NCBI GenBank assembly: GCA_964536485.1
Contig: CAZHXX010000005.1
Coordinates: 42 to 64,041, forward strand
Source of the DNA: an uncultured Candidatus Saccharibacteria bacterium
GTDB taxonomy: Bacteria; Patescibacteriota; Saccharimonadia; Saccharimonadales; SZUA-47
Length of the DNA stretch: 64,000 nt
Reading direction: 5' to 3'
A program made the translations under genes and the position numbers. The notes beneath the pieces were generated by a model. The model searched no databases. It was not told the origin of the DNA and worked only from the letters and a program-made list of their open reading frames with translations. Of this stretch, positions 7,815-64,000 are shown in pieces; the first letter of the stretch is position 1, and every line of letters starts with the position of its first letter.

Positions 7815-7888
7815 GGCGCCTTGGCCGAGAAGTTAGGCAGCGGTCTGCAAAACCGCGTAGACGGGAGCGTTACCCGTAGGTGCCTCCA
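7815..7888 (+). tRNA. tRNA-Cys (GCA), non-canonical T-loop
   Basis: Hand fold: acceptor GGCGCCT/AGGTGCC (one G-U), anticodon stem GCGGT/ACCGC with loop CTGCAAA, T-stem ACGGG/CCCGT, U73 discriminator typical of tRNA-Cys, CCA encoded; T-loop AGCGTTA lacks TTC. Confidence 0.5.
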
Positions 7889-7922
7889 TAAACATCATAC
7901 ATAACAAATTTGACAAAAACGC

Positions 7923-8010
7923 GGGCGAATGGCGGAATTGGTATACGCGACAGACTTAAAATCTGTTGACTGAATAAGTCTTGTGGGTTCAAGTCCCACT
8001 TCGCCCACCA
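7923..8010 (+). tRNA. tRNA-Leu (TAA), class II with long variable arm
   Basis: Acceptor GGGCGAA/TTCGCCC, anticodon stem ACAGA/TCTGT loop CTTAAAA, variable arm GACT..AGTC, T-arm GTGGG-TTCAAGT-CCCAC, A73, CCA. Confidence 0.8.
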
Positions 8011-8016
8011 CAACAA

Positions 8017-8042
8017 AAACACCTTGCAAATAGGTGTTTTTT
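8017..8042 (+). terminator. rho-independent terminator after tRNA pair
   Basis: Hairpin AACACC-ttgcaaata-GGTGTT followed by TTTTT. Confidence 0.5.
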
Positions 8043-8059
8043 CATTGTAACGAGGTATA

Positions 8060-51464: not shown

Positions 51465-53516
51465 GTGGAATTTCTAGGCGCTAAAAGTTACAATGAGCGC
51501 AGTAGCGATATGAGTGAAGAAGACAAGTCACAATCAATGAGCGACAAAGATCGCACGATGGCGAACCGTTTTGGCGGTGAGGCTAATGAAGATGCACCCG
51601 AAAAAGATGATGACGATGATGAGAAAGACGAAAAAAAGGACGAAAAACGTCCACCAAAGCGAGCGCTCTTTTTGCCTGCAGAAAAAGATGAGTCTGCGAG
51701 CTCTGTAGAAAAAACTGAAGAAGATAAGCCAAAGCGCAATTTGTTTAGTGGTTTTTTGCGTACAGATGCTGTACCAGAAGAAAAGACTGAGCAAGTTCCC
51801 GAAGAGAATCCACATGAGGTGGTTGAGGTTACAGCTGAAGATGCTAGTAACGAGCAAGATGTAGAAGCGCCAGCTCCTGTTCCTGAGCAGACAGGGGAAG
51901 CCGAACAAGAAGCAACACGTGAGGAATTTCAGGAAGTAGTGCTTGATAGGATAGGCGAGGTAGAAGCAGAACTCGAGACAAAGCACACCGAAGAAGAGGC
52001 AACAGAAGTATTGGCGAATGCAGACTTTTTAGAGCAGGTTGGTGAGCGTTTGGAAGAGGGTATGGCCCCTGAAGAAGCAATAGATGATGCACTTGAAGAT
52101 CAGATAGAGCCAGTTGAGGCTGACGCAACACCGGCCGATCTCAAAAATGTTGCTAATTTTGAGCCTGCTGAAGAAGAGGAAGAGGCTGTTATCCCCCCGG
52201 TAGCAACGCCTGTTCGTCCAACTCGCGTGCCTCCACGTCCACCACTCCCACCTGTGCCCCCAGTGACTCCTTACATGCCTCCGTCGCCGGGTGGTCCTCC
52301 GCATAATCCTAACCTTCCAAGTGGTGGTGCAATTAGTCCTAATATGGTCAGAAATGACCCAGACGTCGAGCAAATGAATGACTATTACTATCGCAAGCGC
52401 CGAAGCGGAGACTTGTTGCTAGGTGGTGTTGTTGGATATCTGCTTGGAAAACGTCGTGGTAGAAGAGCTACAGAGGCTAAGTTTGAGCCTGAACTACGCA
52501 AGCGTGATGACGCTATCGGCGACCTAAAAGACAAGCTCATGACTAGTGAAGAAAAAGTGCGCGCTCTTGCGTCTGCTAAAAGCGCCGAGCTTGCCACTGT
52601 AGAAGCGAATGCGCCAAAAACAGAAGTTGTTCAAAAAGTCGTCCCAGTGGTAGAAGCAAAGACAGAATATGTTGAAGTACCATCTGTTGAAGTTGTGACC
52701 CAAAAGATTGAATCTTTGCCAGTAGATACTATTGAAGTTGAGCGACAAACACTTGTTGAGCAAGAGAAAGTGTTCTTGGAATCGATAGAAGTGCCCGTAC
52801 AAGAGCCGTTTGAGCCAGAGAAACTTAGCGAGTTACTTACACGGAGCGAAGTTGTAGAGCAATTACAGACCGTCGCTGAAAAAGTAATCGTAGAGAAAGA
52901 AGCGGGAGAGGCTACCGCTACAACGATAGAAAAGATTGTCGAAGTTCCGCAAGTCAGCTACGAGCGCGGAGAAACAAAAATGTCTCAGTCAAACGAGAAG
53001 CAAGTAAGTCCACCAGCTATTGAGGCAAAAAAGGATCCGCGTACGATGACCATGCACGAGTTGCTGGAAGTAGCCGACCATATTTTCTTAGAGAAAACGA
53101 GTGTGCGCGAGCTGTATGAGCATCATCGCATCGACGCGGTAAATCTACGACGCGTGGTACTAGAGTATATGAACGGCGGAACGCGTTACGAAAAGGTGCT
53201 ACGACGGTCTCTCGAAGCAGTAGAAATGCAGCGCGAACTACGCAACGAAATTCGCCATGATCCGAGTGCAACATTTAATGCTAACGATGAGTCCGCAGGA
53301 AGAAACGAATCCGCATCTGACAGCTCAGACCAGGGCAAGAAAGACGCTCTTACGGGTGCTGATGTGCGCAGACAGCAAAATTCTTACACGGCCGATTCTC
53401 AGCAAGAAAAACAACCGTCCGATGAACAGCTCATGATCTCGAATGGCACTGCGATTGTGGTCGGGGTGCTGATGGGCATTGCAATCATGATTGTATTGTT
53501 CTTGTACGCTCGCTAG
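51465..53516 (+). CDS. large acidic, Pro-rich membrane protein (hypothetical)
   Basis: GTG start in track (ATG ~51510 possible); Glu/Asp-rich disordered N-half, Pro-rich PPVPPVTPYMPPSPGGPP, two hydrophobic segments (mid and C-terminal). Confidence 0.45.
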   Translation: MEFLGAKSYNERSSDMSEEDKSQSMSDKDRTMANRFGGEANEDAPEKDDDDDEKDEKKDEKRPPKRALFLPAEKDESASSVEKTEEDKPKRNLFSGFLRTDAVPEEKTEQVPEENPHEVVEVTAEDASNEQDVEAPAPVPEQTGEAEQEATREEFQEVVLDRIGEVEAELETKHTEEEATEVLANADFLEQVGERLEEGMAPEEAIDDALEDQIEPVEADATPADLKNVANFEPAEEEEEAVIPPVATPVRPTRVPPRPPLPPVPPVTPYMPPSPGGPPHNPNLPSGGAISPNMVRNDPDVEQMNDYYYRKRRSGDLLLGGVVGYLLGKRRGRRATEAKFEPELRKRDDAIGDLKDKLMTSEEKVRALASAKSAELATVEANAPKTEVVQKVVPVVEAKTEYVEVPSVEVVTQKIESLPVDTIEVERQTLVEQEKVFLESIEVPVQEPFEPEKLSELLTRSEVVEQLQTVAEKVIVEKEAGEATATTIEKIVEVPQVSYERGETKMSQSNEKQVSPPAIEAKKDPRTMTMHELLEVADHIFLEKTSVRELYEHHRIDAVNLRRVVLEYMNGGTRYEKVLRRSLEAVEMQRELRNEIRHDPSATFNANDESAGRNESASDSSDQGKKDALTGADVRRQQNSYTADSQQEKQPSDEQLMISNGTAIVVGVLMGIAIMIVLFLYAR

Positions 53517-53572
53517 TCTCTTCAAAATTGCGCCCACATCTGTTATTATGTGCTGTGAAGAGAAGAGATATC

Positions 53573-54424
53573 ATGCAAAAAATTATTCTTTACTACAAAT
53601 TCACTCCTATTAAAGACCCAGAAATGACGATGCGCTGGCAACGCGAACTGTGCACTCGTCTTGGCTTGAAAGGGCGTATCTTGATTAGCCCACATGGCAT
53701 TAACGGCACGCTTGGTGGGCATATTGACGACCTGACTGCTTACAAAAGGGCTATGAATGAATCGGGTGTTTTTCGTGGCATTACTTACAAGTGGAGTAAT
53801 GGTGGCGTTGAAGATTTTCCAAAATTACGCGTCAAGGTCAAGCCAGAAATTGTGGCATTTGATGCAGCAGATGAGATTGTGGTGACAGAAAAAGGGGTAG
53901 TAAACGGCGGCAAACATCTAAAACCTGCTGCCGTACACAAACTTGTTGAAGAAAAGGGTGATGAAGTTATTTTTTATGACGGACGCAATATGTATGAGGC
54001 ACAAATAGGTCGTTTCAAAAACACGATTATTCCCAATACGACAACAAGCCGTGACTTCAAAAAAGACCTTGAAGAGGGAGAGATTTCAAAGTACAAAGAC
54101 AAGCCAATTGTCACGTATTGTACCGGCGGAATTCGCTGTGAGATTTTGAGCGCCATGATGCTTAATCGTGGCTACAAAGAGGTCTATCAGATAGATGGTG
54201 GCATTGTGAAATATGGTGAAAAGTATGCAGACGACGGGCTGTGGGAAGGCAAGCTATTTGTCTTTGACGATCGAATGCAAATGGGTTTTTCAGACAAAGC
54301 CAAAGACATCGCCACTTGCGAAAAGTGTGGCAAAAAGACATCGCATCAGATAAATAGCACAAACATTCGACGTAAGTTACATGTTGTTTGTGAAAACTGC
54401 GCTACCCAAAAAGTACTAGACTAA
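53573..54424 (+). CDS. trhO: rhodanese-domain tRNA uridine(34) hydroxylase TrhO (UPF0176/YceA family)
   Basis: MQKIILYYKF start typical of family; rhodanese active-site CTGGIRCE; C-terminal Cys cluster. Confidence 0.75.
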   Translation: MQKIILYYKFTPIKDPEMTMRWQRELCTRLGLKGRILISPHGINGTLGGHIDDLTAYKRAMNESGVFRGITYKWSNGGVEDFPKLRVKVKPEIVAFDAADEIVVTEKGVVNGGKHLKPAAVHKLVEEKGDEVIFYDGRNMYEAQIGRFKNTIIPNTTTSRDFKKDLEEGEISKYKDKPIVTYCTGGIRCEILSAMMLNRGYKEVYQIDGGIVKYGEKYADDGLWEGKLFVFDDRMQMGFSDKAKDIATCEKCGKKTSHQINSTNIRRKLHVVCENCATQKVLD

Positions 54425-54490
54425 TCTAAATTATTGTGATATAATATTATAAATTAATTGACAATAAGTTGTAAAGGAAGCTAATTCGTT

Positions 54491-55000
54491 ATGGATGTCA
54501 AGAAAGCACCGGGTGCCTTACTAAACAAGAGGTTCAAACTTGCTCTACCAAAAATCGATATGAAATTTGGGACTGTTTTGGCCTTGACTGCGGCGGGATA
54601 TCTTATCGTAAATGATGGAAATGCGGGGAATGCAGGTCGTGATGTAGCGAGCGACGTGAAAAATAAAGTCGCTCCTGCAATAGCTACTGTTGTCTCTGAC
54701 GGTATTGATTTTGCTGGTGGTGCTATTGAAGGCGCAACAGATGGTAATGGCGTAGACATTAAACTTCCCGAATTTAGTAGTGGTGAACAGCAGGCGAGTG
54801 ATACTGTTGGTAGCACGGGTTCAGCAATACTTGATTTGGCTGGTCTAGGTTGTGTGAGTGGCGAATATTCTAATGCGAAAGGTCCCTGGGGCGCAATGCA
54901 AGATGCGGGGCTCAGTGAAGCGATAATTGCTAGCGTTATCGATACAGAACAAGTGAAAGCTATACCGGGCAACGCGCAGTCAATTCAAATCAACTGTTAG
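54491..55000 (+). CDS. Gly/Ala-rich hypothetical protein with N-terminal TM
   Basis: 169-aa ORF; no motif recognised. Confidence 0.35.
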   Translation: MDVKKAPGALLNKRFKLALPKIDMKFGTVLALTAAGYLIVNDGNAGNAGRDVASDVKNKVAPAIATVVSDGIDFAGGAIEGATDGNGVDIKLPEFSSGEQQASDTVGSTGSAILDLAGLGCVSGEYSNAKGPWGAMQDAGLSEAIIASVIDTEQVKAIPGNAQSIQINC

Positions 55001-55037
55001 TCCACTCTATATCTCGGCGTACTGTATTCTTATAGTG

Positions 55038-56555
55038 ATGGCTAACGCACAGTTATTAGAGAAACTTAAAAATCTTCCGAAAACTCCGGGGGTGTATTTT
55101 CATAAAGACGCATCGGGTGAAACTATTTATGTGGGGAAGGCGGCGGTGCTGCGCAACCGAGTGCGTCAGTACTTTCAGAAGTCGCGTAACCGAGATCCAA
55201 AGACTGAGGCGCTTGTTGCAGAAATTGTTGATACAGAATGGATAGAAGTAGAAACAGAGCTCGATGCGTTGTTTCTCGAAGCCGAGATGATTCGACGTTA
55301 TTTGCCTCGGTACAACATATTACTTCGTGACGATAAGAGCTTGCAGTATGTGCGCATAGACATAAAGTCCGACCACCCTACGGTGACCTTTATTCGTCGT
55401 CCGCTTGATGATGGTGCCGAGTATTTTGGTCCGTATTTTCAGGGGTTTGCGGTGAAGAAAGCGTTGCGCTTACTACGTAGAATTTTTCCTTATGCAGTGA
55501 CGCGTGAGCAAGCAACTATGGGCAGTAGATTGTATGAGCAAATAGGGCTTGACCCAGGGCTTAAAAATGGGCGGACAAGTATAGAGGAATACCGTAAAAA
55601 TTTGCGTAACCTAATGTCTTACTTACGTGGAAATCGCGTGACACTCATGAACGAAATTGAAAAGCAGATGAAAGAGGCGGCGCGTGAGCAAGAATTTGAA
55701 CGAGCGGCAGCCTTGCGCAACAAGTTGTATGAACTCAAAAGCTTAAAGAAGCAAATTATATTCTCTGACAGAGAGTTTATGGACGCCAGCAAAGACAAGG
55801 GTCTGGCAGGACTTGCTGATTTGCTTGGTATAGAGCTCCCTAAGCGCATCGAAGGCTATGACATTAGCCATATGTCTGGTACTGATAACGTTGCAAGTAT
55901 GGTGGTGTTTACAAATGGATTGCCCGACAAAACAAACTACCGAAAGTTTAAAATGCGCCTGAAGGGTAATAACGATTTTGCGCATATGCACGAAGCACTT
56001 TCGAGACGCTTGAGTGACAAAAATATAAAACAGTGGGGCCTACCAACCTTGTTTTTGATAGATGGCGGTAAGGGGCAACTGGGTGCAGCAATCCGTGCAC
56101 GTGATGAGCTTGGAGTGACGGTACCTATGGTGGGGCTTGCCAAGCGTGAAGAAGAGATAGTCGTGCATGCAGAAAAGTCGTTAGTTATGTCTGAGGGACT
56201 GCAAGAAAGAGCTCGCAAACTGCATGCAAGCCTGCAAGAGTCAGATGACTTCGTGCTTATTGATTTGCCAGACACCAACGACATAGTTAAGCTACTGCAG
56301 CGAGTTCGTGACGAATCTCATCGTTTTGCCGTGACGTATCACTCAACCTTGAAAGCAAACCGGCAACTCACCAGTTGGCTTGATGCCGTGCCAGGCATTG
56401 GCCCTGCAACAATAAGGAAGCTTATCAGAATATTTGGGAGCTCGAGAGGAGTCTTGCAAGCAAGGTACACCGAACTTGAGGAACTTTTAGGTGAAAGTAA
56501 AGCAACTATTCTCAAGCAGTACATTCGTGCAGAGAAAAAAGTAGACAAAAACTAA
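55038..56555 (+). CDS. uvrC: excinuclease ABC subunit C
   Basis: GIY-YIG GVYFHKDASGETIYVGKA...RVRQYF, UvrC endonuclease domain, C-terminal HhH GIGPATIRKLIRIFGS; GTG at 55035 in track, ATG 55038. Confidence 0.9.
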   Translation: MANAQLLEKLKNLPKTPGVYFHKDASGETIYVGKAAVLRNRVRQYFQKSRNRDPKTEALVAEIVDTEWIEVETELDALFLEAEMIRRYLPRYNILLRDDKSLQYVRIDIKSDHPTVTFIRRPLDDGAEYFGPYFQGFAVKKALRLLRRIFPYAVTREQATMGSRLYEQIGLDPGLKNGRTSIEEYRKNLRNLMSYLRGNRVTLMNEIEKQMKEAAREQEFERAAALRNKLYELKSLKKQIIFSDREFMDASKDKGLAGLADLLGIELPKRIEGYDISHMSGTDNVASMVVFTNGLPDKTNYRKFKMRLKGNNDFAHMHEALSRRLSDKNIKQWGLPTLFLIDGGKGQLGAAIRARDELGVTVPMVGLAKREEEIVVHAEKSLVMSEGLQERARKLHASLQESDDFVLIDLPDTNDIVKLLQRVRDESHRFAVTYHSTLKANRQLTSWLDAVPGIGPATIRKLIRIFGSSRGVLQARYTELEELLGESKATILKQYIRAEKKVDKN

Positions 56556-56744
56556 AGTTGTGATATAGTGCAGAGAATTATGAGTGACAAATCCTACCAT
56601 CAAATTTCTTCTGCAAACGCGCCTTATTATGTATCTACTGATAGATATCGTGGCCTCGTTGCCTAAAGATACCGTAATTTTTAAAATGTTCGCTTACGGT
56701 ACTGGCACGAAGAAGAACTCAATAATTTAAATTGAGGATATTTT

Positions 56745-57272
56745 ATGAATAACTTTACAGGACAACGGCCGGAAGTCCTTTTTGGCGGTGAGCTAACTTG
56801 GCTAGGAATACACGATAAACGACTCGGAGCATTTGCAAGTCTATCAGAAAAGCAAAGACGTGAGGCCACGACAGATTGGTCTTCTATTCTTACTGAAGAA
56901 AGCGCACGAGGGAGAGTTTTTGGCGCGCATCTACTGAGACAAATCTTAGCGCGTAATGCAGAAGCTATTGAAGAAGCACAACTAGAGCAAGAAGCGGTGA
57001 AGCTAAGTTTTTTACCAGATCGTTTCCACGAGTGGCTTCCTACAGGACAGATTGATAATGCATGGCTTGGTGAAAGGTACGGTTCAGTCGGCAATTGGTG
57101 TTTGGTGGGTGTTGGTGAGCACATTGTGCTTAGTGGCTTTGCTAAACAATTTCTCGCACCAACACCTATGTATGGTTTACAAAGGTTGTCTGCCGTTTCT
57201 ATGCATGTGAGGCCCTTTGTTCCTGAAGTTGCAGAACAAATTGCATGCGCTGTTCAACGGATAGAGGATTAA
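56745..57272 (+). CDS. hypothetical protein
   Basis: 175-aa ORF; no motif recognised. Confidence 0.4.
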   Translation: MNNFTGQRPEVLFGGELTWLGIHDKRLGAFASLSEKQRREATTDWSSILTEESARGRVFGAHLLRQILARNAEAIEEAQLEQEAVKLSFLPDRFHEWLPTGQIDNAWLGERYGSVGNWCLVGVGEHIVLSGFAKQFLAPTPMYGLQRLSAVSMHVRPFVPEVAEQIACAVQRIED

Positions 57273-57290
57273 CTGCTATACTGGCTTTTA

Positions 57291-58487
57291 ATGAGTCAGT
57301 TTAACAAACAGTTTTTTGCTAGGAATCGGGAGCGTTTAATGCAGACGCTCCCAGATTCACTTATTATTTTGAGCGCGAATGCATGCCTGCAACAGTCGGC
57401 AGATCTTGCGTTTCCATTTCGGCAAGATAGTAGTTTTTGGTACCTCAGTGGAATCAACGAGCCAGATATTTTGTTAGTCATTGACACAAAAAAAGGTACA
57501 TCGACTCTCCTTATAGCCGAGCAAAATGACTACCAGATTGAATGGGACGGAGCGGTTGAAACAGAGGGCTATCAAAAAATAAGTGGCATAACTCTCTTTT
57601 CTTCTCAGAATGAACTAAAGCACTTAATTGAGGATGCAAAAAAGCGGGGACTTACTATTTGCAGTGTCAGGCCGGCTGAAGAGCGGGTTGAACCATATGG
57701 CTTTTATGCAAATCCAGCCCGAAGGTTATTGTATGCACAGCTTGAGACATGTGGTGTGAAGGAGCCTAAAGACATTCGACTGCAACTTGCACAACTAAGA
57801 CAAATTAAGCAAGAGCCAGAACTTCGTGCGCTTCAGCGTGCGATAGATATCACAGGTGACGTACTTTCTGACGTAAAAGCAAAGCTTTCTCGCTTTAAGA
57901 CCGAAAAAGATGTAGAACGAGCTATTACGGCAGGGTTTTATTCTGCTGGTGGTGATGGCCATGCGTATGAACCAATTGTTGCATCTGGGAAGAATGCAAG
58001 TACTATTCATTACAATAAGAATAATGAGGCTCTCGCAAAAGGTCACCTATTGCTGCTTGATGTTGGAGCACAGTCAGAGGGATACGCCGCCGATATTAGC
58101 CGAGCATGGGCGGTCGGGCACCCGACAAAACGGCAAAAAGAAGTGTATGACGCTGTATGTGAGTTGCAGGAGCAAGCATTCTCGCTATTGAAGCCGGGAG
58201 TGTATCTTAAGGAATACCAAGAAGAAATGGAAAAAAGAGCTGCGAAAACAATAGAAAAGCTAGGGAAATCCCCACGACCTTTCCCGCACGGGTTTTCTCA
58301 TTTTCTTGGGCTTGATGTTCATGATGCAGGAGACTACAGCTCTCCATTGCAACCAGGAACAGTACTTACGGTTGAACCTGGCTTTTACTTTTCGGATGAA
58401 TCGATAGGGGTGCGCGTCGAGGACGATATTCTCATTACCAAAAGTGGGTACATAAACCTGTCAGAACGAATACCAAAACTGTTATAA
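57291..58487 (+). CDS. M24-family Xaa-Pro aminopeptidase / prolidase
   Basis: Creatinase/prolidase N-domain plus M24 metal ligand blocks (LLLDVGAQSEGYAADISR, HGFSHFLGLDVHD, VEPGFY, VRVEDD). Confidence 0.8.
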   Translation: MSQFNKQFFARNRERLMQTLPDSLIILSANACLQQSADLAFPFRQDSSFWYLSGINEPDILLVIDTKKGTSTLLIAEQNDYQIEWDGAVETEGYQKISGITLFSSQNELKHLIEDAKKRGLTICSVRPAEERVEPYGFYANPARRLLYAQLETCGVKEPKDIRLQLAQLRQIKQEPELRALQRAIDITGDVLSDVKAKLSRFKTEKDVERAITAGFYSAGGDGHAYEPIVASGKNASTIHYNKNNEALAKGHLLLLDVGAQSEGYAADISRAWAVGHPTKRQKEVYDAVCELQEQAFSLLKPGVYLKEYQEEMEKRAAKTIEKLGKSPRPFPHGFSHFLGLDVHDAGDYSSPLQPGTVLTVEPGFYFSDESIGVRVEDDILITKSGYINLSERIPKLL

Positions 58488-58861
58488 TGAAAGTAATGAA
58501 GAAGAACAAAAAATCTCGATTTATCGTGCGATGGTTTGTGTGTAGTTTTGGCTTGTGGATCGCTGCCGAACTGCTTGGTGCAAGTAGCATTAGCTACGGT
58601 GGAAAATTGAGTGCTATTATTTTTTCGGGACTTTTTTTGGCTATCATAAACACCATCATTCGGCCACTAGTAGTCTTTTTAACCTTGCCAGCAGTGTTAT
58701 TGAGTCTTGGAATCTTCATGGTTGTCATCAATGCTCTGATGGTTTTGCTCGCGGCACGGCTGTATGGCCCTCTTGAAGTTGCAGGATTTGGCGTTGCCGT
58801 CATTGCCGGTATTATCATCGGTCTGGTAAACTGGTTAGTAAGTGCTTTATTAGAGGAGTAA
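58487..58861 (+). CDS. DUF360 / phage-holin-4_2 family membrane protein
   Basis: Four-TM pattern with AIINTIIRPLVVFLTLP...LGIFMVVINALMVLLAARL typical of YvlD/DUF360; start overlaps the pepP stop by 1 nt (TAATG). Confidence 0.6.
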   Translation: MKVMKKNKKSRFIVRWFVCSFGLWIAAELLGASSISYGGKLSAIIFSGLFLAIINTIIRPLVVFLTLPAVLLSLGIFMVVINALMVLLAARLYGPLEVAGFGVAVIAGIIIGLVNWLVSALLEE

Positions 58862-58864
58862 GAA

Positions 58865-59080
58865 ATGTCAATTTGGAACTATATTATGGTGGGCTCAGCG
58901 ATAGTAATGATTATATTAATTTTGATTCAGGTCAGAGGCGCTAGTTTGGGTGCCGGACTTGGCGGTGGCGGGGAAGTTAACACTGTCCGTCGTGGTTCAG
59001 ATAAAAGTATTTTTAGTCTCACTATCATCGCTGCGCTAGGATTTGCCTTGTCAATTATTCTAGAAATAATACTTGCGTAA
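58865..59080 (+). CDS. secG: preprotein translocase subunit SecG
   Basis: 71 aa, TM - QVRGASLGAGLGGGGE loop - TM, matching SecG Gly-rich loop. Confidence 0.65.
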   Translation: MSIWNYIMVGSAIVMIILILIQVRGASLGAGLGGGGEVNTVRRGSDKSIFSLTIIAALGFALSIILEIILA

Positions 59081-59102
59081 AGTGTAGGGGTAACTAAACA
59101 CT

Positions 59103-60908
59103 ATGGTGGAAAACGCAAAACGCAGTTACCATCGCTTTCGAATGCGCCTAAGGCGTAAAGTGCGTAAACAGCGCCATCAGGTGGAAGATATTTCCGTGCA
59201 AGCAGACGACATGCTCGATAAGCATGTGTTTCGTCGTGTTGGCCACTTGAAGGGTGTAAGAAGATTTGTTTTTTCTTGGGTGCTACTAGTCTCATTCGTT
59301 GGACTTGGTGCAATATGGCAGGTGAAGAGCCTTGATTCTTTTTATCTTGAGCTTGTTCCTGCGAGTGGCGGAGTATACCGTGAGGGAATGATAGGGTCAT
59401 TTACGACCGCAAATCCTCTTTTTGCGGTTAACGATGTCGATAGCTCTGTCTCTCGCTTAGTTTTTTCTGGGCTTTTCAAGCTTTCGCCAGAGGGCACTCT
59501 TGAGCCAGATTTAGCAACGAGCTATGAAGCAAACACAGATGGCACCGTCTATACAGTTCATTTGAAAGACAATATACGATGGCAAGATGGTGCTCCTTTT
59601 ACCTCGAGCGATGTGTTGTTTACGTATGAACGTATAAAAAATCCAGAAGTTAAATCGCCGTTGTTTAACAGCTGGTCAGCAATTACCGCAGAAGCAAAGG
59701 ATGATTATACGGTTGTATTCACATTGCCTAATACGCTGAGCTCTTTTCCTTTTTCGATGACGAACGGAATTATCCCAAAGCACTTACTTGGTGACATCTC
59801 GCCAGTTGATTTGCGCAACGTACCTTTTAATAGCGTGAATCCGGTAGGGACTGGCTTGTTTCGGTTTAATAAGGTGGAGGTTCTCGGAGATTCTATCGTA
59901 GAGCGTCAAGAAAAAGTAACCTTAGAAAAAAATACGATGTATTACGGAAAAGTGCCAATGATTGATGGTATTACACTGCGCACCTTCAGAGATGAAGATT
60001 CTATGCTTGAGTCATTTAAGAAGCAGGAAATTTCCGCTATGGTTGGGCTAGAAACGCTCCGAGATGACGCACAGGATGACAACACCGTGCAAACCTTTAG
60101 TACGCCATTGTCTGGGCAGGTAATGCTCTTTTTGAAAAACTCGACACCAGCGCTTAGCGATGTTACTGTGCGCAAAGCTTTGCTTCGTGCGACAAATACT
60201 GAAGCACTTAGACAGAAAATCGGGTACAACTTAGTGAGCTCCGATTCGCCGTTTTTGAAGTCGCATTTTACTTATGACCCCACAAAGATTCAGCTACCGT
60301 TTGATAGCGCTGAGGCAGAACGGTTGCTCGACAGTACGGGGTGGGTGAAAAATATAAGTGGTATGCGTGAAAAAGATGGACAAAAATTGACGCTACGACT
60401 TGTTTCGCAAAGCATAAGTGAATATGCAACGGTAGCTCAGGAGTTACAGAAGCAGTGGGCAAGTGTCGGCGTGCAAGTCGAAGCAGTCCTGCAACCAGAA
60501 GAGGACGTTCAGACGGGGGCAATTATTCAGCATGACTATGATGTGTTGCTTTATGGCATTTCACTTGGACCAGACCCCGACGTTTTTGCGTTTTGGCACA
60601 GCTCACAGACGGATCCACGCTTGCGGTCGAGGCTTAATTTGTCGGAGTACACGAGTAAAGTAGCCGATTTATCGCTGGAGGCAGGAAGAACACGTACAAA
60701 TGCCGAGCTACGGAAGGTAAAATATGGGCCGTTTCTTGATGCTTGGACTGCTGATGTACCGGCTATAGCGCTGTATCAACCCCGTTTCTTATTTGTTGTT
60801 AGAGGGACGCTCGAAGGATACAGAAGTGGGCAGTTTACCAACGCTTCGGATAGGTTTTATTCAGTAGCAGACTGGCAAATCCGGCGTGAAAAAACAGTAA
60901 AATATTAA
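59103..60908 (+). CDS. ABC transporter substrate-binding protein, family 5 (oligopeptide/dipeptide-binding)
   Basis: N-terminal TM/signal anchor, SBP_bac_5-like blocks (LVPASGGVYREG, LEPDLATSYE, WQDGAPFTS.DV). Confidence 0.75.
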   Translation: MVENAKRSYHRFRMRLRRKVRKQRHQVEDISVQADDMLDKHVFRRVGHLKGVRRFVFSWVLLVSFVGLGAIWQVKSLDSFYLELVPASGGVYREGMIGSFTTANPLFAVNDVDSSVSRLVFSGLFKLSPEGTLEPDLATSYEANTDGTVYTVHLKDNIRWQDGAPFTSSDVLFTYERIKNPEVKSPLFNSWSAITAEAKDDYTVVFTLPNTLSSFPFSMTNGIIPKHLLGDISPVDLRNVPFNSVNPVGTGLFRFNKVEVLGDSIVERQEKVTLEKNTMYYGKVPMIDGITLRTFRDEDSMLESFKKQEISAMVGLETLRDDAQDDNTVQTFSTPLSGQVMLFLKNSTPALSDVTVRKALLRATNTEALRQKIGYNLVSSDSPFLKSHFTYDPTKIQLPFDSAEAERLLDSTGWVKNISGMREKDGQKLTLRLVSQSISEYATVAQELQKQWASVGVQVEAVLQPEEDVQTGAIIQHDYDVLLYGISLGPDPDVFAFWHSSQTDPRLRSRLNLSEYTSKVADLSLEAGRTRTNAELRKVKYGPFLDAWTADVPAIALYQPRFLFVVRGTLEGYRSGQFTNASDRFYSVADWQIRREKTVKY

Positions 60909-60950
60909 GAACTTTGCTTGGCCGAACGAAAGTGTTTGCACTTTGAGTGA

Positions 60951-61013
60951 GCAATTTTAGGCAAGTCAAGATTTGAACCTTTATAATAATGTGTACGCGG
61001 ATGTGGTGGAATG
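60951..61013 (+). repeat. direct repeat DR1: tRNA-Leu promoter-like region plus first 17 nt of tRNA-Leu (truncated copy)
   Basis: ~85% identical to 61213-61276; ends GCGGATGTGGTGGAATG then diverges (no tRNA body). Confidence 0.7.
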
Positions 61014-61212
61014 TGAGAAATGCCTGTGGCATTTCGCAAGGCAACCTTCACTAGCAAACTTGTTTTCAAAGATGAAGTTTCGGGTGAAATGAGCCTGTGG
61101 CTCGTTGCAAGGATTATTGTCTGATTTTATACTTGTATAAAGTAAGACAAAATCTGGGTCGCTAAAAGTGACCGCCAAAGGTGACAGACACGCGTGCTTG
61201 CGTTCAACGCAA

Positions 61213-61276
61213 GCAATTTTTAGACAAGTCAAGATTCGAACCTTTATACTTAAGTAGATGCGGATGTGGTGGAATG
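61213..61276 (+). repeat. direct repeat DR2 (authentic tRNA-Leu(CAG) upstream region and 5' end)
   Basis: Contains TAGACA-17-TTATAC promoter-like elements then tRNA start. Confidence 0.7.
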
Positions 61277-61343
61277 GTAGACACGCTGGCTTCAGGTGCC
61301 AGTGTCGCAAGACGTGAAGGTTCAAGTCCTTTCATCCGCACCA
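61260..61343 (+). tRNA. tRNA-Leu (CAG)
   Basis: Acceptor GCGGATG/CATCCGC, anticodon stem CTGGC/GCCAG loop TTCAGGT, long variable arm, T-arm GAAGG-TTCAAGT-CCTTT, A73, CCA. Confidence 0.8.
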
Positions 61344-61403
61344 ATCAAAGTGGAGCCTTGCAAAAGGCTCCTTTTTGATTGGTGATGGTGATAGATTTGA
61401 ACC
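61336..61403 (+). repeat. inverted repeat IR-L (tRNA 3' end CCGCACCA plus terminator hairpin plus ~30 nt)
   Basis: Reverse complement of 63290-63356, 1 indel in 67 nt. Confidence 0.85.
61352..61376 (+). terminator. rho-independent terminator after tRNA-Leu(CAG)
   Basis: GGAGCCTT-gcaa-AAGGCTCC followed by TTTTT. Confidence 0.75.
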
Positions 61404-61497
61404 CTTGGGTCGAGAAAGTTCAGTGAACTTTCGAGTTTTCCTTGCTTGACCACCCGAGATACGCTTGCGTTCTCGAGGGTGTGAAAAATAATATGTT

Positions 61498-61515
61498 GTC
61501 CTCTCGTCCGCACCA
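61498..61515 (+). pseudogene. orphan 3' fragment of tRNA-Leu (GTCCTCTCGTCCGCACCA)
   Basis: Identical to the 3' end of tRNA-Leu(GAG) at 63522-63607 but no tRNA body upstream. Confidence 0.6.
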
Positions 61516-61629
61516 ATCACTGCATCTGTGCACCTCACTCGTAAACGAACGGTAATGCTGAGAGAAATACGAAAATTATGTCCCATCCAAACTAGTTATG
61601 CTATGATTAAATCATTCTAACGATAAAGG

Positions 61630-63270
61630 TTGACAGTGAATAAAGTTGCACAGTATTTGCAGCAGCATTTGAATGGCGAAATCATAACGTCGCCAGATGC
61701 GCTTGAGTATTTTTCAACAGATGAAAGTATTTTGCGAATTACTCCGCAACTTGCTCTCTACCCACGCTCAGAAAATGACGTCCGTAAAGTAGCAAGATTT
61801 ACCTGGCAACTTGCAGAAAAAGGTCGAGCAGTCCCGATTACTGCACGCGGAATGGGAACAGATCAGACAGGCGCATCGCTTGGGACAGGAATTATTCTTG
61901 TAACACCAGCACACATGAACAGAATTATTGAACTCGATCCAAAAACTGGCGTTGTTACGGCTGAAGCGGGTATTACACTAGATAAATTGCAACAGGTGCT
62001 CTACACCCATGGACGTTTTTTGCCACCAGTATCAAGCGTGAACCAGACAGCTACTCTCGGTGGGGCAGTATCAAATGATGATAGTGGCAGAGGAAGTTAT
62101 AAGTATGGTCCAATGCAACGGTTTGTGCGTAGCCTGAGAGTTGTTTTGGCGAATGGGGAAGTGATTGATACGGGACGAATAAGCAAAAGAGAGCTGAGTA
62201 AAAAGCTTGGGTTGGCGTCGTTTGAGGGTGAGATATATCGTTCCCTTGATAAGCTCATAGAAGAGTCGCACAGTACGCTTTCGCAACTTGCAACAGTGAC
62301 TGACCATAGTGCCGCGGGATATAACATTTCTGACGTCAAGCAAAAAGACGGTTCGTTTGACCTGACACCGTTATTTGTTGGCGCACAAGGTACTTTGGGA
62401 GTAATTACTGAAGTTACGCTTGAAACTTTGCCATATAACCCGTCAAAAGATTTTCTCATTGCAGGATTTATAGACAGAGAAAGTGCTTGGACGTCGGTAC
62501 AAAAGCTGAACGATATGAAAGATGGTGCCACAGCCATAGATTTTGTCGATCAGACATTATTGCGAACGGTTGAAACACTTAACCCGGCGGTACTCAAACC
62601 ACTTGAGGGTGGTCGTCCTGCGGTACTTTTGTTCATTGATATTGATAACGATACAGCGCGAACACGTAAAAAAATTGTAAAACGGATACGTAAAACACTT
62701 GAGTCATCTGGGGCTGAGATTGTTGAGCCGGTAGAAACCGAGGAGCATGTATGGGAACGGCTTAGAGATGCGGCCTCTTTGCACCTTACCAATGTTTCTG
62801 GGAAGAAGCGAGCTATTCCTGTTCTTGATGATGCACAAGTACCACTAGATAAGATGATAGGATTCTTTAAAGAGCTTGAAGCACTTATGCAGACGGCAAT
62901 GATTGAAGAGTTTGCAGTTTGGGGTCAGGCAGGAACGGGCTTGGTGCATGTCGCTCCTCTTCTTGACCTTTCGGCAGTTGGTGACAGGCAAAAGCTGTTT
63001 AAGGTGATGGAAGCATATTACGGCTATATCTGCACCATCGGTGGTTCGATTAGCGGTGAGTATGCAGAAGGACGCCTGCGGGCAATATTTGCTCAAAAAC
63101 AATTTAGCGAGCAAGCACTTGCAGTATTTCGTTCGACCAAAGCTATATTTGATCCACAGCAGACTATGAATCCTGGCGTTAAAGTCGGAGTAAGTCTGGA
63201 ATCCTTAAAGCCGTTGCTCAGAGAAGAGTATGCACTTCAACATCAGTTTGTGCATTTACCTCGGGGCTAA
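61630..63270 (+). CDS. FAD-linked oxidase (PCMH-type FAD-binding domain; GlcD/D-lactate dehydrogenase family)
   Basis: TTG/GTG start; FAD-binding domain blocks (ITARGMGTDQTG, GG.VSNDDSGRGSYKYGPM), C-terminal FAD-oxidase domain. Confidence 0.8.
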   Translation: MTVNKVAQYLQQHLNGEIITSPDALEYFSTDESILRITPQLALYPRSENDVRKVARFTWQLAEKGRAVPITARGMGTDQTGASLGTGIILVTPAHMNRIIELDPKTGVVTAEAGITLDKLQQVLYTHGRFLPPVSSVNQTATLGGAVSNDDSGRGSYKYGPMQRFVRSLRVVLANGEVIDTGRISKRELSKKLGLASFEGEIYRSLDKLIEESHSTLSQLATVTDHSAAGYNISDVKQKDGSFDLTPLFVGAQGTLGVITEVTLETLPYNPSKDFLIAGFIDRESAWTSVQKLNDMKDGATAIDFVDQTLLRTVETLNPAVLKPLEGGRPAVLLFIDIDNDTARTRKKIVKRIRKTLESSGAEIVEPVETEEHVWERLRDAASLHLTNVSGKKRAIPVLDDAQVPLDKMIGFFKELEALMQTAMIEEFAVWGQAGTGLVHVAPLLDLSAVGDRQKLFKVMEAYYGYICTIGGSISGEYAEGRLRAIFAQKQFSEQALAVFRSTKAIFDPQQTMNPGVKVGVSLESLKPLLREEYALQHQFVHLPRG

Positions 63271-63289
63271 GCTTGTCTTTTCGCCTTTC

Positions 63290-63356
63290 GGTTCAAATCT
63301 ATCACCATCACCAATCAAAAGGAGCCTTTTGCAAGGCTCCACTTTGATTGGTGCGG
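63290..63356 (-). repeat. inverted repeat IR-R
   Basis: See IR-L; contains the same terminator hairpin, functional in minus orientation. Confidence 0.85.
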
Positions 63357-63440
63357 ACGAGAGGACTTGACTGGTTATCTCGCTCGAGTGTGCAAGCACA
63401 TCTCACTCACCGCTTCGCTCCATCTGACTCCTCAAACTGA
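63349..63440 (-). pseudogene. degenerate tRNA-Leu-like remnant (intact 3' end, decayed body)
   Basis: Minus-strand ...AGTCCTCTCGTCCGCACCA 3' end; upstream sequence cannot form acceptor/T-arm pairing (GCGGTGA vs required GCGGACG; T-loop GTCAAGT without stem). Confidence 0.5.
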
Positions 63441-63487
63441 CACTGGCAGTTTTCGCCTTTCGGTTCAAGTCCTGCAATCAGACCAAA

Positions 63488-63513
63488 TTAAAAAGCCCAG
63501 ATAAATCTGGACT
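63488..63513 (-). terminator. rho-independent terminator after tRNA-Val/tRNA-Leu array (minus strand)
   Basis: Minus-strand AGUCCAGAU-uu-AUCUGGGCU (one G-U) followed by UUUUAAU. Confidence 0.55.
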
Positions 63514-63521
63514 TCTTAATT

Positions 63522-63607
63522 TGGTGCGGACGAGAGGACTTGAACCTCCACAGGATCGCTCCCACTACCACCTCAAGGTAGCGTGTCTACCATTCCACCA
63601 CGTCCGC
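63522..63607 (-). tRNA. tRNA-Leu (GAG)
   Basis: Reverse complement folds: acceptor GCGGACG/CGTCCGC, anticodon stem CTACC/GGTAG loop TTGAGGT, long variable arm, T-arm GGAGG-TTCAAGT-CCTCT, A73, CCA. Confidence 0.8.
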
Positions 63608-63630
63608 GAAATAACTTTTTAAAATAAAAA

Positions 63631-63707
63631 TGGTGGGTTGTGAGGGATTCGAACCCCCGACCCCCTCGGTGTAAACGAGGTGCTCTAGCCAACTGAGCTA
63701 ACAACCC
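63631..63707 (-). tRNA. tRNA-Val (TAC)
   Basis: Reverse complement: acceptor GGGTTGT/ACAACCC, D-arm GCTC-AGTTGGCTA-GAGC, anticodon stem CCTCG/CGAGG loop TTTACAC, T-arm GGGGG-TTCGAAT-CCCTC, CCA. Confidence 0.85.
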
Positions 63708-63805
63708 AAGTTACTGAATTCTACTATTTTTTATTGATAAATTCAATACACTTCTCACTGATAGCGGTGCTATACTTATTGAGTAAGACGAATAAAGGAG
63801 TAGAA

Positions 63806-64000
63806 ATGATAATTGCATTAGTAGTACTAGGCCTTCTTGCGCTTGTACTTGTTGTTATGTATAACGGGTTAGTTAACACAAAGGTTCGTGTCGACGAAGC
63901 ATGGAGCGACATAACCGTTCAGTTGAAGCGCCGTGTTGACCTGATCCCAAATCTTGTAGAGACAGTTAAAGGGTATGCAAAGCACGAAAAGGGGGTATTT
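63806..64000 (+). CDS. lemA: LemA family protein (5' partial, runs off window)
   Basis: SD AAAGGAG; N-terminal TM then [43 protein letters not shown], the LemA signature. Confidence 0.6.

Follow-up and report, generated by a model that had tools for sequence, protein, structure and literature searches.

Inverted repeats of tRNA-Leu and terminator sequence around an oxidase gene of a Saccharibacteria genome, and the tRNA-associated repeat family to which they appear to belong

In a 64-kb stretch of DNA from an uncultured Candidatus Saccharibacteria bacterium (the window), a gene for a FAD-binding oxidoreductase (the oxidase) lies between inverted repeats that abut tRNA-Leu sequences. This arrangement raises the question of whether the repeats are a device, such as a switch that inverts the gene, or a by-product of how the genes are laid out. 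A sequence-only reading had described the repeats as 67 nt long. They are present and extend further, with arms at 61322-61403 and 63290-63370 (82/81 nt, 96% identity) that differ by 2 mismatches and one 1-nt indel. The outer part (61322-61375/63317-63370; 54 nt, 96%) is contiguous with an inner part (61373-61403/63290-63320; 31 nt) that is 100% identical; both mismatches fall within the tRNA 3′ end, and from 61336 on the sole difference is the 1-nt indel. The genes, arms and tRNA-derived pieces of the locus are as follows.

60955-61013, plus strand: duplicated tRNA-Leu(CAG) promoter segment and a 17-nt 5′ tRNA-Leu fragment (GCGGATGTGGTGGAATG, 60997-61013); 60955-61023 matches 61218-61286 at 83% over 69 nt, at a spacing of 263
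61218-61259, plus strand: promoter-like region of tRNA-Leu(CAG), TAGACA-18-TATACT (promoter scan, 61221-61250)
61260-61343, plus strand: intact tRNA-Leu(CAG) (ARAGORN; Rfam tRNA model, 57.1 bits)
61322-61403, no strand assigned: left arm, consisting of the last 22 nt of tRNA-Leu(CAG), a palindromic terminator (core 61352-61371) and a mirror T-arm/acceptor-like fragment (61380-61403, minus-strand sense)
61498-61519, plus strand: orphan tRNA-Leu 3′ fragment, from the T-loop/T-stem, with 0 mismatches, in direct orientation with tRNA-Leu(CAG) and 172 nt past the corresponding gene position
61636-63270, plus strand: oxidase gene, likely GTG start at 61636 in an ORF that opens at 61630 (PF01565, 1e-32; PF02913, 6e-29)
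63290-63370, no strand assigned: right arm, consisting of a mirror T-arm fragment (63290-63313, plus-strand sense), a palindromic terminator (core 63321-63340) and an orphan tRNA-Leu 3′ fragment (63345-63370, minus strand)
63462-63520, no strand assigned: mirror T-arm fragment (63462-63486) and palindromic terminator of tRNA-Leu(GAG) (63487-63520), -27.9 kcal/mol, z=-8.0
63522-63607, minus strand: intact tRNA-Leu(GAG) (ARAGORN; Rfam tRNA model)
63631-63707, minus strand: intact tRNA-Val(TAC) (ARAGORN; Rfam tRNA model)

Palindromic terminator hairpins can resemble inverted repeats, and the arms might in principle be two independent terminators that are alike by chance or convergence. We give this explanation practically no weight. 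Loop and stem of the hairpin are both inverted, which marks the arms as genuine inverted copies and not look-alike palindromes; moreover, identity continues beyond the hairpin, for 30 nt of the mirror fragment and 22 nt of the tRNA 3′ end, and no such matches are expected by chance. The 20-nt hairpin core GGAGCCTTGCAAAAGGCTCC occurs exactly twice in the 64 kb, on opposite strands, where shuffled sequences lead one to expect 0.

The hairpins themselves are strong. Folding gave ∼24 bp and -35.6 kcal/mol (z=-6.2) for the left arm, and -30.3 kcal/mol on the plus strand (z=-4.8) and -35.5 kcal/mol on the minus strand (z=-6.5) for the right. A scan for a GC-rich hairpin followed by a T run flagged 61352-61371 and 63321-63340 on both strands, which upholds, as a prediction, the earlier suggestion of a bidirectional terminator. 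The plus-strand T-tract behind the hairpin at 63340 is weak (ACTTTGATT).

The tRNA-derived pieces around the arms are arranged in a regular order. The tRNA-Leu 3′ end GTCCTCTCGTCCGCACCA occurs at 61498-61515 (plus strand), 63349-63366 (minus strand) and 63522-63539 (minus strand, within the intact tRNA-Leu(GAG)), with 0.01 expected by chance, and tRNA-Leu(CAG) carries it with 2 mismatches; both the perfect copy beside the right arm and the orphaned plus-strand copy that had been reported are thus in place. On the left, reading the plus strand, tRNA-Leu(CAG) is followed by a terminator, a mirror fragment, an element that we call E (type A) and the orphan fragment. On the right, reading the minus strand, tRNA-Leu(GAG) is followed by a terminator, a mirror, E (type B), a fragment, and then a second terminator, mirror and stub of E, that is, two tandem modules with a period of 172-173 nt. 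The left side, reverse-complemented, aligns colinearly with the right across ∼360 nt, and the repeat arms are the segments from tRNA 3′ end through terminator to mirror in two modules, the left one and the distal one on the right. A direct repeat that had been noted at 19 nt extends to 22 nt at 95% identity (63278-63299/63450-63471). The direct repeats of the tRNA 3′ portion (61498-61519, plus strand; 63345-63370, minus strand) bound inserts of ∼150 nt and not the oxidase. The promoter-like region at 61218-61259 holds a T-loop remnant and the mirror T-arm motif CAAGTCAAGATTCGAACC, with the repeat AGATTCGAACCTTT at 61232-61245. No further copies of the arms or modules were found within the 64-kb window, including at tRNA-Cys and tRNA-Leu(TAA). 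The arms do not have the character of boundaries of a composite transposon or MITE: they occur only at these two sites in the 64 kb, consist of tRNA and terminator sequence, and showed no short target-type duplication abutting them. Pairing of the mirror and orphan fragments into a tRNA-like minihelix was considered and rejected, the mirrored acceptor strand being decayed, by eye, in most copies.

The sequence-only reading had suggested that the oxidase segment might invert and had asked whether the gene is foreign. Every named homologue among the best 120 is from Saccharibacteria (an exact-sequence lookup of the protein returned no record), GC content across the locus is uniform, and the gene lies in a gene order conserved in Saccharibacteria, UvrC-PepP-holin-SecG-SBP-[tRNA-Leu]-oxidase-[tRNA-Leu, tRNA-Val]-LemA-M48-LigA. 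By these comparisons the oxidase is a native, vertically inherited and fixed gene, and a foreign origin is not supported; the foreign or patchy cargo of a tRNA-targeted island is not what is seen here, the oxidase being found throughout Saccharibacteria in conserved synteny. In 58 of 58 loci it is on the strand of the upstream SBP gene, and its orientation with respect to the downstream LemA gene is constant in 18 of 18; this comparison spans species with oxidase identities of 47% to 89%, and no orientation variant was seen among these loci. No recombinase, invertase or integrase is evident among the ORFs at 52000-64000 (which include UvrC, PepP, SecG, SBP and the oxidase; three were Pfam-scanned).

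These observations argue against an active invertible element, in which the 82-nt arms or the two tRNA-Leu genes would recombine, flip the 1.9-kb segment and change oxidase expression or tRNA context. Moreover, an apparently conserved promoter-like motif, TGCTATGAT, lies ∼35 nt ahead of the oxidase start inside the segment, so inversion would not switch the oxidase on or off. On the other side, the repeats are adequate in length and identity, inverted repeats surround the oxidase in related genomes too (made there of other module parts or of the tRNA genes themselves), modules have crossed between the sides of the gene during evolution, and many assemblies end at the oxidase flanks in contigs of 1.9-3.1 kb (L001, L002, L009, L042, L073, L074, L080). 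Such contig breaks could stem from repeats or from heterogeneity. We regard an active invertible element as very improbable.

We conclude that the inverted repeat is probably a by-product of gene layout and local recombination rather than a switch. In the proposed explanation, two paralogous tRNA-Leu genes, CAG upstream and GAG downstream, each trail such modules while facing the resident oxidase, and the arms are inverted only because these two tRNA genes converge on it. The 60-nt identical arm core may reflect recent gene conversion or duplication between the sides: the arms are identical, bar the indel, over the terminator and mirror, compared with ∼89-90% identity between the homologous block and its counterparts in L003 and L002. 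As judged from hairpin energy and the consensus scan, the left-arm hairpin would terminate tRNA-Leu(CAG), and that of the right arm would have two roles: ending plus-strand transcription of the oxidase and, on the minus strand, stopping read-through that arrives from the tRNA-Leu(GAG) side. In our model, the mirror fragments remain from an inverted duplication about the terminator palindrome that was followed by loss. Such inverted duplication and loss would explain why the tRNA genes, and never the oxidase, occur either way round in related species. A repeat of 82 nt at 96% identity would be long enough for RecA-dependent inversion, which counts against this explanation.

Module content varies among the three closest relatives, as rapid turnover would produce. 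In L001 a type-B module lies on the left, inverted relative to the right side of the window, and in L002 types A and B stand in tandem on the left. Modules found on the right in the window occupy the left side, in inverted form, in L001, L002 and L003, which means that sequence was exchanged across the oxidase in the course of evolution. Gene conversion is our preferred route for this exchange; two nested inversions would give the same result.

The remaining parts of the modules in the window are copies or remnants of E, none of which were found elsewhere in the 64 kb.

61012-61082, plus strand: truncated type-C E, lacking the last hairpin and joined directly to a tRNA 5′ fragment inside the D-arm (type-C profile match 61011-61084, E=1.2e-15; 89% over 72 nt to L005)
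61083-61173, plus strand: full-length, 91-nt type-C E (GGTGAAATGAGCC...GGGTCGCTAAAAGTGACC), which folds to the three-hairpin shape of the family consensus (-32.1 kcal/mol, z=-5.5)
61404-61497, plus strand: degenerate type-A E, which occupies the interval from the terminator module to the orphan tRNA 3′ end (match at 61396-61488 to a profile built with this copy included)
63278-63289, minus strand: what remains of an E copy, 12 nt from its 5′ end (GAAAGGCGAAAA), truncated next to the stop codon of the oxidase; joined to the mirror fragment, it makes up one of the two copies of the 22-nt direct repeat
63371-63461, minus strand: degenerate type-B E (profile match 63470-63371; fold not stable, z=+0.9)

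The type-A copy is called degenerate because its fold lacks significant stability (z=-1.3). Its surroundings are conserved, 61338-61516 being 90.5% identical to L003 over 179 nt and 61383-61516 being 90.3% identical to L002. The type-B copy had been taken for a decayed tRNA body. This does not hold: the Rfam tRNA model found no match in 63371-63449 even at E≤10, and the stretch is homologous to E, which is not a tRNA. Positions 63348-63551 match L001 (285-82) at 88.8% over 206 nt, and the type-B copy is 86% identical over 66 nt to L078, although the oxidase of L078 is only 47% identical. Alignment of the window with L004 had suggested that this body was a normal tRNA-Leu promoter region; in a test of 12 loci only L004 showed the upstream similarity, so the suggestion was rejected as an account of the family in general, and the upstream copies that resemble the body there are extra E modules.

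Across genomes, E is a sharply defined element of ∼90 nt with three hairpins, many copies and no coding capacity, carried by at least 120 metagenomic loci. In the consensus structure 95.2% of cells are paired, compared with 74.1% in shuffles and at most 46% in slid controls; 25 of 33 pairs show compensatory changes, and 420 cells changed on both sides, compared with 111 in shuffles. The hairpins fold on the tRNA-sense strand, G-U pairs are far commoner than A-C, and GGTGAGAA, TTCGCAAGG and CGGGG are invariant single-stranded motifs. Searches of Rfam returned only tRNAs and chance-level matches (window 60000-64000 at E≤10; seven loci with full-length E at E≤1), and neither E nor the supposed body matched a tRNA, tmRNA or other Rfam family. 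A search of the literature for repeats, introns or structured RNAs associated with tRNAs in Saccharibacteria or Patescibacteria found nothing relevant.

E sits inside partial copies of tRNA genes, in the D loop, the anticodon loop at position 37/38, the variable loop or the T loop. Its neighbours are intact tRNA genes of nearly all identities; any tRNA detected close to E was intact and of the matching identity, and for roughly one in three instances the contig stretch examined contained no tRNA. E almost always shares the strand of the nearest tRNA. Downstream of tRNA-Leu(CAG), tRNA-Leu(GAG) and tRNA-Val(TAC), it mostly starts 42-62 nt past the tRNA 3′ end and is followed by that tRNA's own 3′ fragment, while its left flank is the 5′ strand of the T-stem, itself preceded by an inverted copy of the T-arm. 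Further copies of E stand upstream of tRNAs and adjoin 5′ fragments cut within the D, anticodon or variable loop. Some loci carry it as tandem arrays (172-190-nt period) or between small gene cassettes. In the upstream arrays of L182, each copy of a tRNA 5′ part plus E is preceded by the same spacer as the intact gene, a spacer that we infer to hold a promoter.

Comparison of loci showed what by sequence is the same module family across Saccharibacteria. The order is tRNA 3′ end, long palindromic terminator, mirror-image T-arm, E (∼90-100 nt), and an orphan tRNA 3′ end starting in the T-loop, and the layout between the tRNA and the orphan end is conserved across loci. Of 75 loci, 18 have an orphan 3′ end, mostly with 0 mismatches, that points the same way as its parent tRNA and lies 150-185 nt (in one case 243 nt) downstream of it. 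These ends match the acceptor sequence of each genome's resident tRNA (as in L005), which fits concerted evolution. The tRNA-Leu(CAG) gene is on the plus strand in 22 loci and on the minus strand in 23, and tRNA-Leu(GAG) is on the plus strand in 40 and on the minus strand in 20; the identities of the two are swapped in 5.

The sequence-only reading had also raised integration or excision at tRNA-Leu. Part of this stands, in that the evidence supports the view that orphan 3′ ends record recombination at tRNA-Leu genes; the part that would make the arms the boundary of an island does not. A more general version, which concerns the origin of the modules and is compatible with our preferred explanation of the repeat, is that the modules derive, as scars or as miniature forms, from site-specific integrative elements targeting the T-loop or 3′ end of tRNA genes, with attL/attR-like repeats and E as an attachment-site arm, the inverted repeat then marking insertion ends at two converging tRNA-Leu genes. 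Consistent with this idea, direct repeats run from the T-loop to CCA, often through the terminator, around a defined insert, at a consistent spacing of 150-190 nt. In L160 a 172-aa ORF (putatively GNAT-like, by eye) and a 117-aa ORF lie between successive modules, flanked by 9-nt copies of the tRNA acceptor end; L147 has a similar one-gene spacing; and at the right junction both L001 and L002 have an additional 136-aa gene, absent from the window. However, in addition to the lack of an integrase among the ORFs near the window locus, ORF clustering found no recurrent recombinase-like or transposase family near the 120 E-bearing metagenomic loci, and the E motif had 0 matches in 2.9 million viral contigs, a result that led us to reject E as a phage or prophage attachment arm. 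Nor would a single attachment site predict E upstream of tRNAs at D-, anticodon- and variable-loop 5′ fragments, and a simple attP x attB event would not yield the T-stem 5′ strand and inverted T-arm copy to the left of E. We therefore hold this origin to be rather unlikely.

Alternatively, E and its flanking tRNA pieces may be functional RNA genes, for instance a small structured RNA whose maturation is aided by adjoining tRNA-derived segments, or what is left of tRNA genes that once were split or contained introns, with the arms conserved as parts of transcription units. The strong covariation on the tRNA-sense strand, the invariant single-stranded motifs, the shared strand and the L182 arrays, with their presumed promoter-bearing spacer, would fit this reading, and the insertion points resemble sites of archaeal and some eukaryotic tRNA introns (PMC3241643, PMC9602550). 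Against it, among 111 instances (35 cut-offset combinations each), in-silico removal of E restored a detectable tRNA in 1, so the interrupted copies are incomplete and E was rejected as an intron of functional tRNAs. Furthermore, the tRNA detected near E is an intact copy of matching identity, types A and B, the window copies beside the arms, are degenerate and lack a stable fold, and hairpin covariation is equally expected of DNA repeats recognised as hairpins. We consider a functional RNA unlikely.

We tentatively propose, at somewhat under even confidence, that E defines a new class of tRNA-gene-associated element that builds modules, arrays and occasional small gene cassettes and drives tRNA genes to flip and shuffle locally, either as a non-autonomous mobile element targeting tRNA-shaped DNA or RNA or as a structured RNA matured beside tRNAs, and that the inverted repeat in the window is one of its footprints. 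The oxidase repeat itself is ordinary, a recombination scar with predicted terminator function. The locus nevertheless exposes a repeat system that seemingly shapes the tRNA loci of ultra-small symbiotic bacteria throughout this major group. This system leaves spare tRNA pieces and duplicates terminators and promoters, may let tRNA genes switch orientation and carry small accessory genes, and plausibly accounts for frequent assembly breaks at tRNA loci in these genomes. Should E turn out to be mobile with a preference for tRNA loops, or to be processed as an RNA, bacteria would gain a new mobile or non-coding RNA element, one that interestingly parallels the split tRNAs and non-canonical tRNA introns found in small archaea.

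Several known systems resemble parts of this arrangement. Site-specific invertible DNA switches (Hin/Gin, fim, shufflons) share with the oxidase locus inverted repeats around a gene-sized segment, but here there is no invertase, a single orientation in 58 of 58 loci, arms of tRNA and terminator sequence, and an apparent promoter inside the segment. Among the short structured interspersed repeats of bacteria (REP/BIME/REPIN, MITEs, Rickettsia palindromic elements), E finds a likeness in its size of ∼90 nt, its hairpins with compensatory changes, and its many non-coding copies. It differs from them in lacking terminal inverted repeats and short target duplications, in accompanying fragments of tRNA genes, on the strand of the tRNA, at all sites where a tRNA was detected close by, in having no associated transposase identified by ORF clustering at 120 loci, and in having no copies elsewhere in the 64-kb window.

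Integrative elements leave direct repeats of tRNA 3′ ends, and remnants flanked by att sites but devoid of an integrase are known as CIME-type elements. The modules are similar in their orphan tRNA 3′ end, T-loop to CCA, in direct orientation downstream of an intact tRNA, in their tandem accretion and, in some loci, in the small cargo genes between repeats. In contrast to CIME-type elements, their insert measures only ∼150-190 nt and has a structured core that is conserved. No integrase occurs close by or recurs among loci, the viral contigs searched lack the motif, E-like elements also lie upstream of tRNAs with 5′ fragments cut in other loops, and the downstream module always includes an inverted T-arm copy.

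Tandem inversion duplications, which arise by template switching at quasi-palindromes, have been described in Salmonella, and duplication followed by random loss is a model of tRNA rearrangement in animal mitochondria. Here, too, the tRNA 3′ sequence runs forward, inverted and forward, with the first junction in the terminator palindrome and the second in a small variable-loop/T-stem palindrome, and tRNA genes occur in either orientation at a fixed position. The third copy, however, always has E in the T-loop, the outcome recurs at many tRNA genes, and a full inverted tRNA copy, as an intermediate would carry, was not found.

Finally, non-canonical tRNA introns and split tRNA genes are described in Archaea and some algae (PMC3241643, PMC9602550). 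The present hosts are bacterial, the interrupted copies are incomplete and, where a tRNA was detected, an intact copy stands alongside; a bulge-helix-bulge junction also looks unlikely because the last hairpin of E pairs, by eye, within E. The likeness to those introns lies in where E interrupts the tRNA sequence: the D loop, the anticodon loop at 37/38, the variable loop and the T loop.

The inverted repeat flanking the FAD-binding oxidoreductase gene (the oxidase, 61636-63270, + strand) was present in the sequence as the sequence-only reading had described the region. A repeat search returned two contiguous pairs of inverted arms, 61322-61375/63317-63370 (54 nt, 96% identity) and 61373-61403/63290-63320 (31 nt, 100% identity), the whole repeat being 82/81 nt long, its arms differing by two mismatches and a single 1-nt indel. 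Both its hairpin core and a 24-nt piece, GGTTCAAATCTATCACCATCACCA, occurred exactly twice in the 64 kb, on opposite strands, with 0 copies expected by chance. The tRNA-Leu 3′ end, GTCCTCTCGTCCGCACCA, was found in three exact copies and one with two mismatches; ARAGORN and Rfam identified only three real tRNA genes here, tRNA-Leu(CAG) on the + strand and tRNA-Leu(GAG) and tRNA-Val(TAC) on the - strand. The direct repeat previously given as 19 nt was present at 63278 and 63450 and is 22 nt long.

Alignment of the reverse-complemented left side with the right side showed that the two are colinear over about 360 nt. Read in the direction of the tRNA, each side is made up of units in which tRNA-Leu is followed by a palindromic terminator and then by the mirror, a fragment that looks like the T-arm and acceptor end of the tRNA in reverse complement. 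After a further ∼95 nt comes an orphan tRNA-Leu 3′ end that begins in the T-loop. On the right side the unit is present twice in a row, with a period of 172-173 nt, and the end of the oxidase gene truncates the distal copy after 12 nt. The left arm of the inverted repeat consists of the tRNA 3′ end, terminator and mirror of the left unit, and the right arm of the same three parts of the distal right unit. RNA folding paired the tRNA end (...CCGCACCA) with the mirror in a ∼24-bp hairpin in each arm (−30 to −36 kcal/mol, z −4.8 to −6.5), and a consensus scan found both hairpins terminator-like on both strands; the arm hairpins may therefore double as terminators. The terminator-plus-mirror block was 100% identical between the arms but only about 89-90% identical to two related loci, L003 and L002, a pattern indicating that gene conversion or duplication has acted recently within this genome. 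In the preferred reading, the inverted repeat is a pair of copies of a tRNA trailer module that face in opposite directions and would be kept alike by conversion or recent duplication. The earlier proposal of an inverted duplication holds in that the arms share a common ancestor. Template switching (tandem inversion duplication) fits as an origin of the module itself, given that tRNA 3′ sequence runs forward, inverted and forward again with junctions at palindromes.

The sequence-only reading had also raised inversion of the oxidase segment as a possibility and proposed checking the gene for a foreign origin. We compared oxidase contexts among homologues of 71-89% identity and 80 species-level genomes (loci from other genomes and metagenome contigs are designated L001-L207, with oxidase homologues in L001-L087). 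A single neighbourhood was conserved: UvrC, aminopeptidase P, a holin-like protein, SecG, a family-5 solute-binding protein, the oxidase, tRNA-Leu/tRNA-Val, LemA, an M48 peptidase and LigA. The solute-binding protein gene lay upstream on the same strand in all 58 loci where it was seen, and LemA followed the oxidase, again co-oriented with it, in 18 of 18; this constant orientation gives inversion no support. Nor was there support for a foreign gene: of the best 120 homologues (544-545 aa), every named one was from Saccharibacteria or Saccharimonadales, synteny was conserved, and the GC content of the window was flat. The ORF has FAD_binding_4 and FAD-oxidase_C domains. Upstream of it, at 61589-61629 and in the same place in L001 and L003-L006, lies a conserved motif, (A/C)TTATGCTATGAT...CATTC, that shares 97.6% identity with L001 across 41 nt. 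Because this motif, about 35 nt before the start, resembles an extended −10 element (TGCTATGAT) and was conserved in the relatives compared, the oxidase probably has its own promoter.

The tRNA genes around the oxidase were found in either orientation. Relative to the oxidase, the upstream tRNA-Leu(CAG) was on the + strand in 22 loci and the - strand in 23, and the downstream tRNA-Leu(GAG) on the + strand in 40 and the - strand in 20; the two identities were exchanged in 5 loci, and the upstream tRNA was missing in some relatives (L003, L006). Across L001-L087, tRNA-Leu(CAG), tRNA-Leu(GAG) and tRNA-Val(TAC) kept their positions around the oxidase, with both orientations at roughly comparable frequency. 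Modules also differed among close relatives. L001 (88% oxidase identity) has a type-B module left of the oxidase, inverted with respect to the window's right side, and the gene there is flanked by a separate set of inverted repeats of roughly 70 nt; in L002 (89%), modules of types A and B stand in tandem left of the oxidase; L003 (77%) has both on the right, without the upstream tRNA; and L004 and L010 have none after tRNA-Leu(GAG). These differences show that modules are quickly gained, lost and swapped between the two tRNA-Leu positions, with the oxidase remaining in place. The earlier suggestion of integration or excision at tRNA-Leu captures something real for the modules and fails for the oxidase. 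In the two closest relatives, L001 (2069-2479) and L002 (2120-2530), an extra gene, predicted to encode a membrane protein of 136 aa, separates the oxidase from the right-hand terminator/fragment; the window lacks this gene, so that a small gene was gained or lost at a module junction. Many assemblies gave a short contig (1.9-3.1 kb; L001, L002, L009, L036, L042, L073, L074, L080) that contains only the oxidase and ends in the flanking tRNA-Leu or module repeats, which seem to break short-read assemblies.

The ∼95-nt stretches within the units (61404-61497 and 63371-63461) had been labelled a decayed tRNA body, a label that does not stand, as neither matched a tRNA model. Relatives conserve them well: identity was 90.5% to L003 (179 nt) and 88.8% to L001 (206 nt), and it reached 86% over 66 nt in L078, whose oxidase shares only 47% identity with that of the window. 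In 18 of 75 loci the local tRNA-Leu 3′ end recurred in direct orientation 150-185 nt downstream of the gene (one at 243 nt); such copies usually had 0 mismatches, following the acceptor sequence of their own genome's tRNA, and the sequence between gene and copy had a shared layout across loci. Profiles of three sub-types (A/B, C and D) found 52 copies in 88 loci and cross-matched one another; the A/B profile was built including the window's own copies, whose membership rests mainly on independent pairwise similarities and the cross-matches. Nearly all copies were on the strand of the nearest tRNA, and most began 42-62 nt past its end and were followed by that tRNA's own 3′ fragment, a layout seen for tRNA-Val and both tRNA-Leu genes. 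A plain tRNA promoter region was rejected as a general explanation, since a direct test across 12 loci gave upstream similarity in L004 only. We regard the stretches as degenerate copies of a repeat element, E, whose best-preserved sub-type, C, is also in the window, upstream of tRNA-Leu(CAG):

61012-61082, truncated E of type C, fused to a 17-nt tRNA-Leu 5′ fragment
61083-61173, full 91-nt E of type C, folding into the family consensus shape

A scan for the E 5′ hairpin motif gave at least 120 loci in public metagenome contigs and 0 matches in 2.9 million viral contigs; E loci include window 61012-61173, L005, L018, L034, L062, L063, L078 and L088-L207. The length of E is sharply defined (mode 89-90 nt in 111 instances among the matches listed). 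An alignment of 65 non-redundant copies revealed three hairpin domains with compensatory changes in 25 of 33 predicted pairs. Cells were paired in 95.2% of cases, compared with 74.1% in shuffles (0 of 500 reached the observed value) and at most 46% when partners were slid by 1-3 columns, and double-change cells numbered 420 versus 111 in shuffles. G-U pairs were common (one was kept in 59 of 65 copies) and A-C rare, indicating that the folding strand is the tRNA-sense strand. The motifs GGTGAGAA, TTCGCAAGG and CGGGG were invariant. E had no match in Rfam, and literature searches gave no description of it.

Among the matches listed, E adjoined nearly all kinds of tRNA gene (Gly, Lys, Gln, Glu, Ser, His, Trp, Arg, Pro, Val, Tyr, Phe, Ile, Thr and several Leu), and with few exceptions it shared the strand of the tRNA. 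Downstream copies had the layout tRNA, palindromic terminator, mirror, E and orphan tRNA 3′ end. Upstream copies lay about 60 nt before an intact tRNA, and ahead of each was a 5′ portion of that tRNA. This portion stopped in the D loop (Gly, Gln, Trp, Phe, Leu), between anticodon-loop positions 37 and 38 (Pro, L182), in the variable loop (for Val) or at the T-stem. In L184, a tRNA-Leu(CAG) copy interrupted twice sits directly beside the intact gene. When E was removed in silico, a tRNA became detectable in only 1 of 111 instances, so the interrupted copies are incomplete; at loci with a detected tRNA, the functional gene is presumably the intact one alongside. Occupancy in this genome is partial, since tRNA-Cys and tRNA-Leu(TAA) at 7815-8050 have plain terminators and no module. 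An RNA-level role for E fits the covariation, strand bias and loop positions, and site-specific integration as the origin of the module fits the direct repeats and cassettes. Among these readings of the module's origin and of E, a non-autonomous DNA element together with recombination scars ranks first, if not by a wide margin. No recombinase-like protein family recurred near E among the matches listed.

Small genes lie between successive modules in L160 (11160-12700) and L147 (1-1000), each spacer comprising a tRNA acceptor end, terminator, mirror, E and tRNA 3′ fragment. These genes are a 172-aa ORF that reads as GNAT-like (putative), a 117-aa ORF and, in L147, a single ORF. The layout resembles a cassette array, and the stretch examined showed neither an intact tRNA nor a recombinase. 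Tandem E arrays with periods of 186-189 nt occur in L182 and L204. In L182 (4350-4830, - strand), two tandem copies with a 189-nt period each consist of tRNA-Pro(GGG) positions 1-37 followed by E, with an intact tRNA-Pro directly after; the insertion point, 37/38 in the anticodon loop, is the classical site of tRNA introns.
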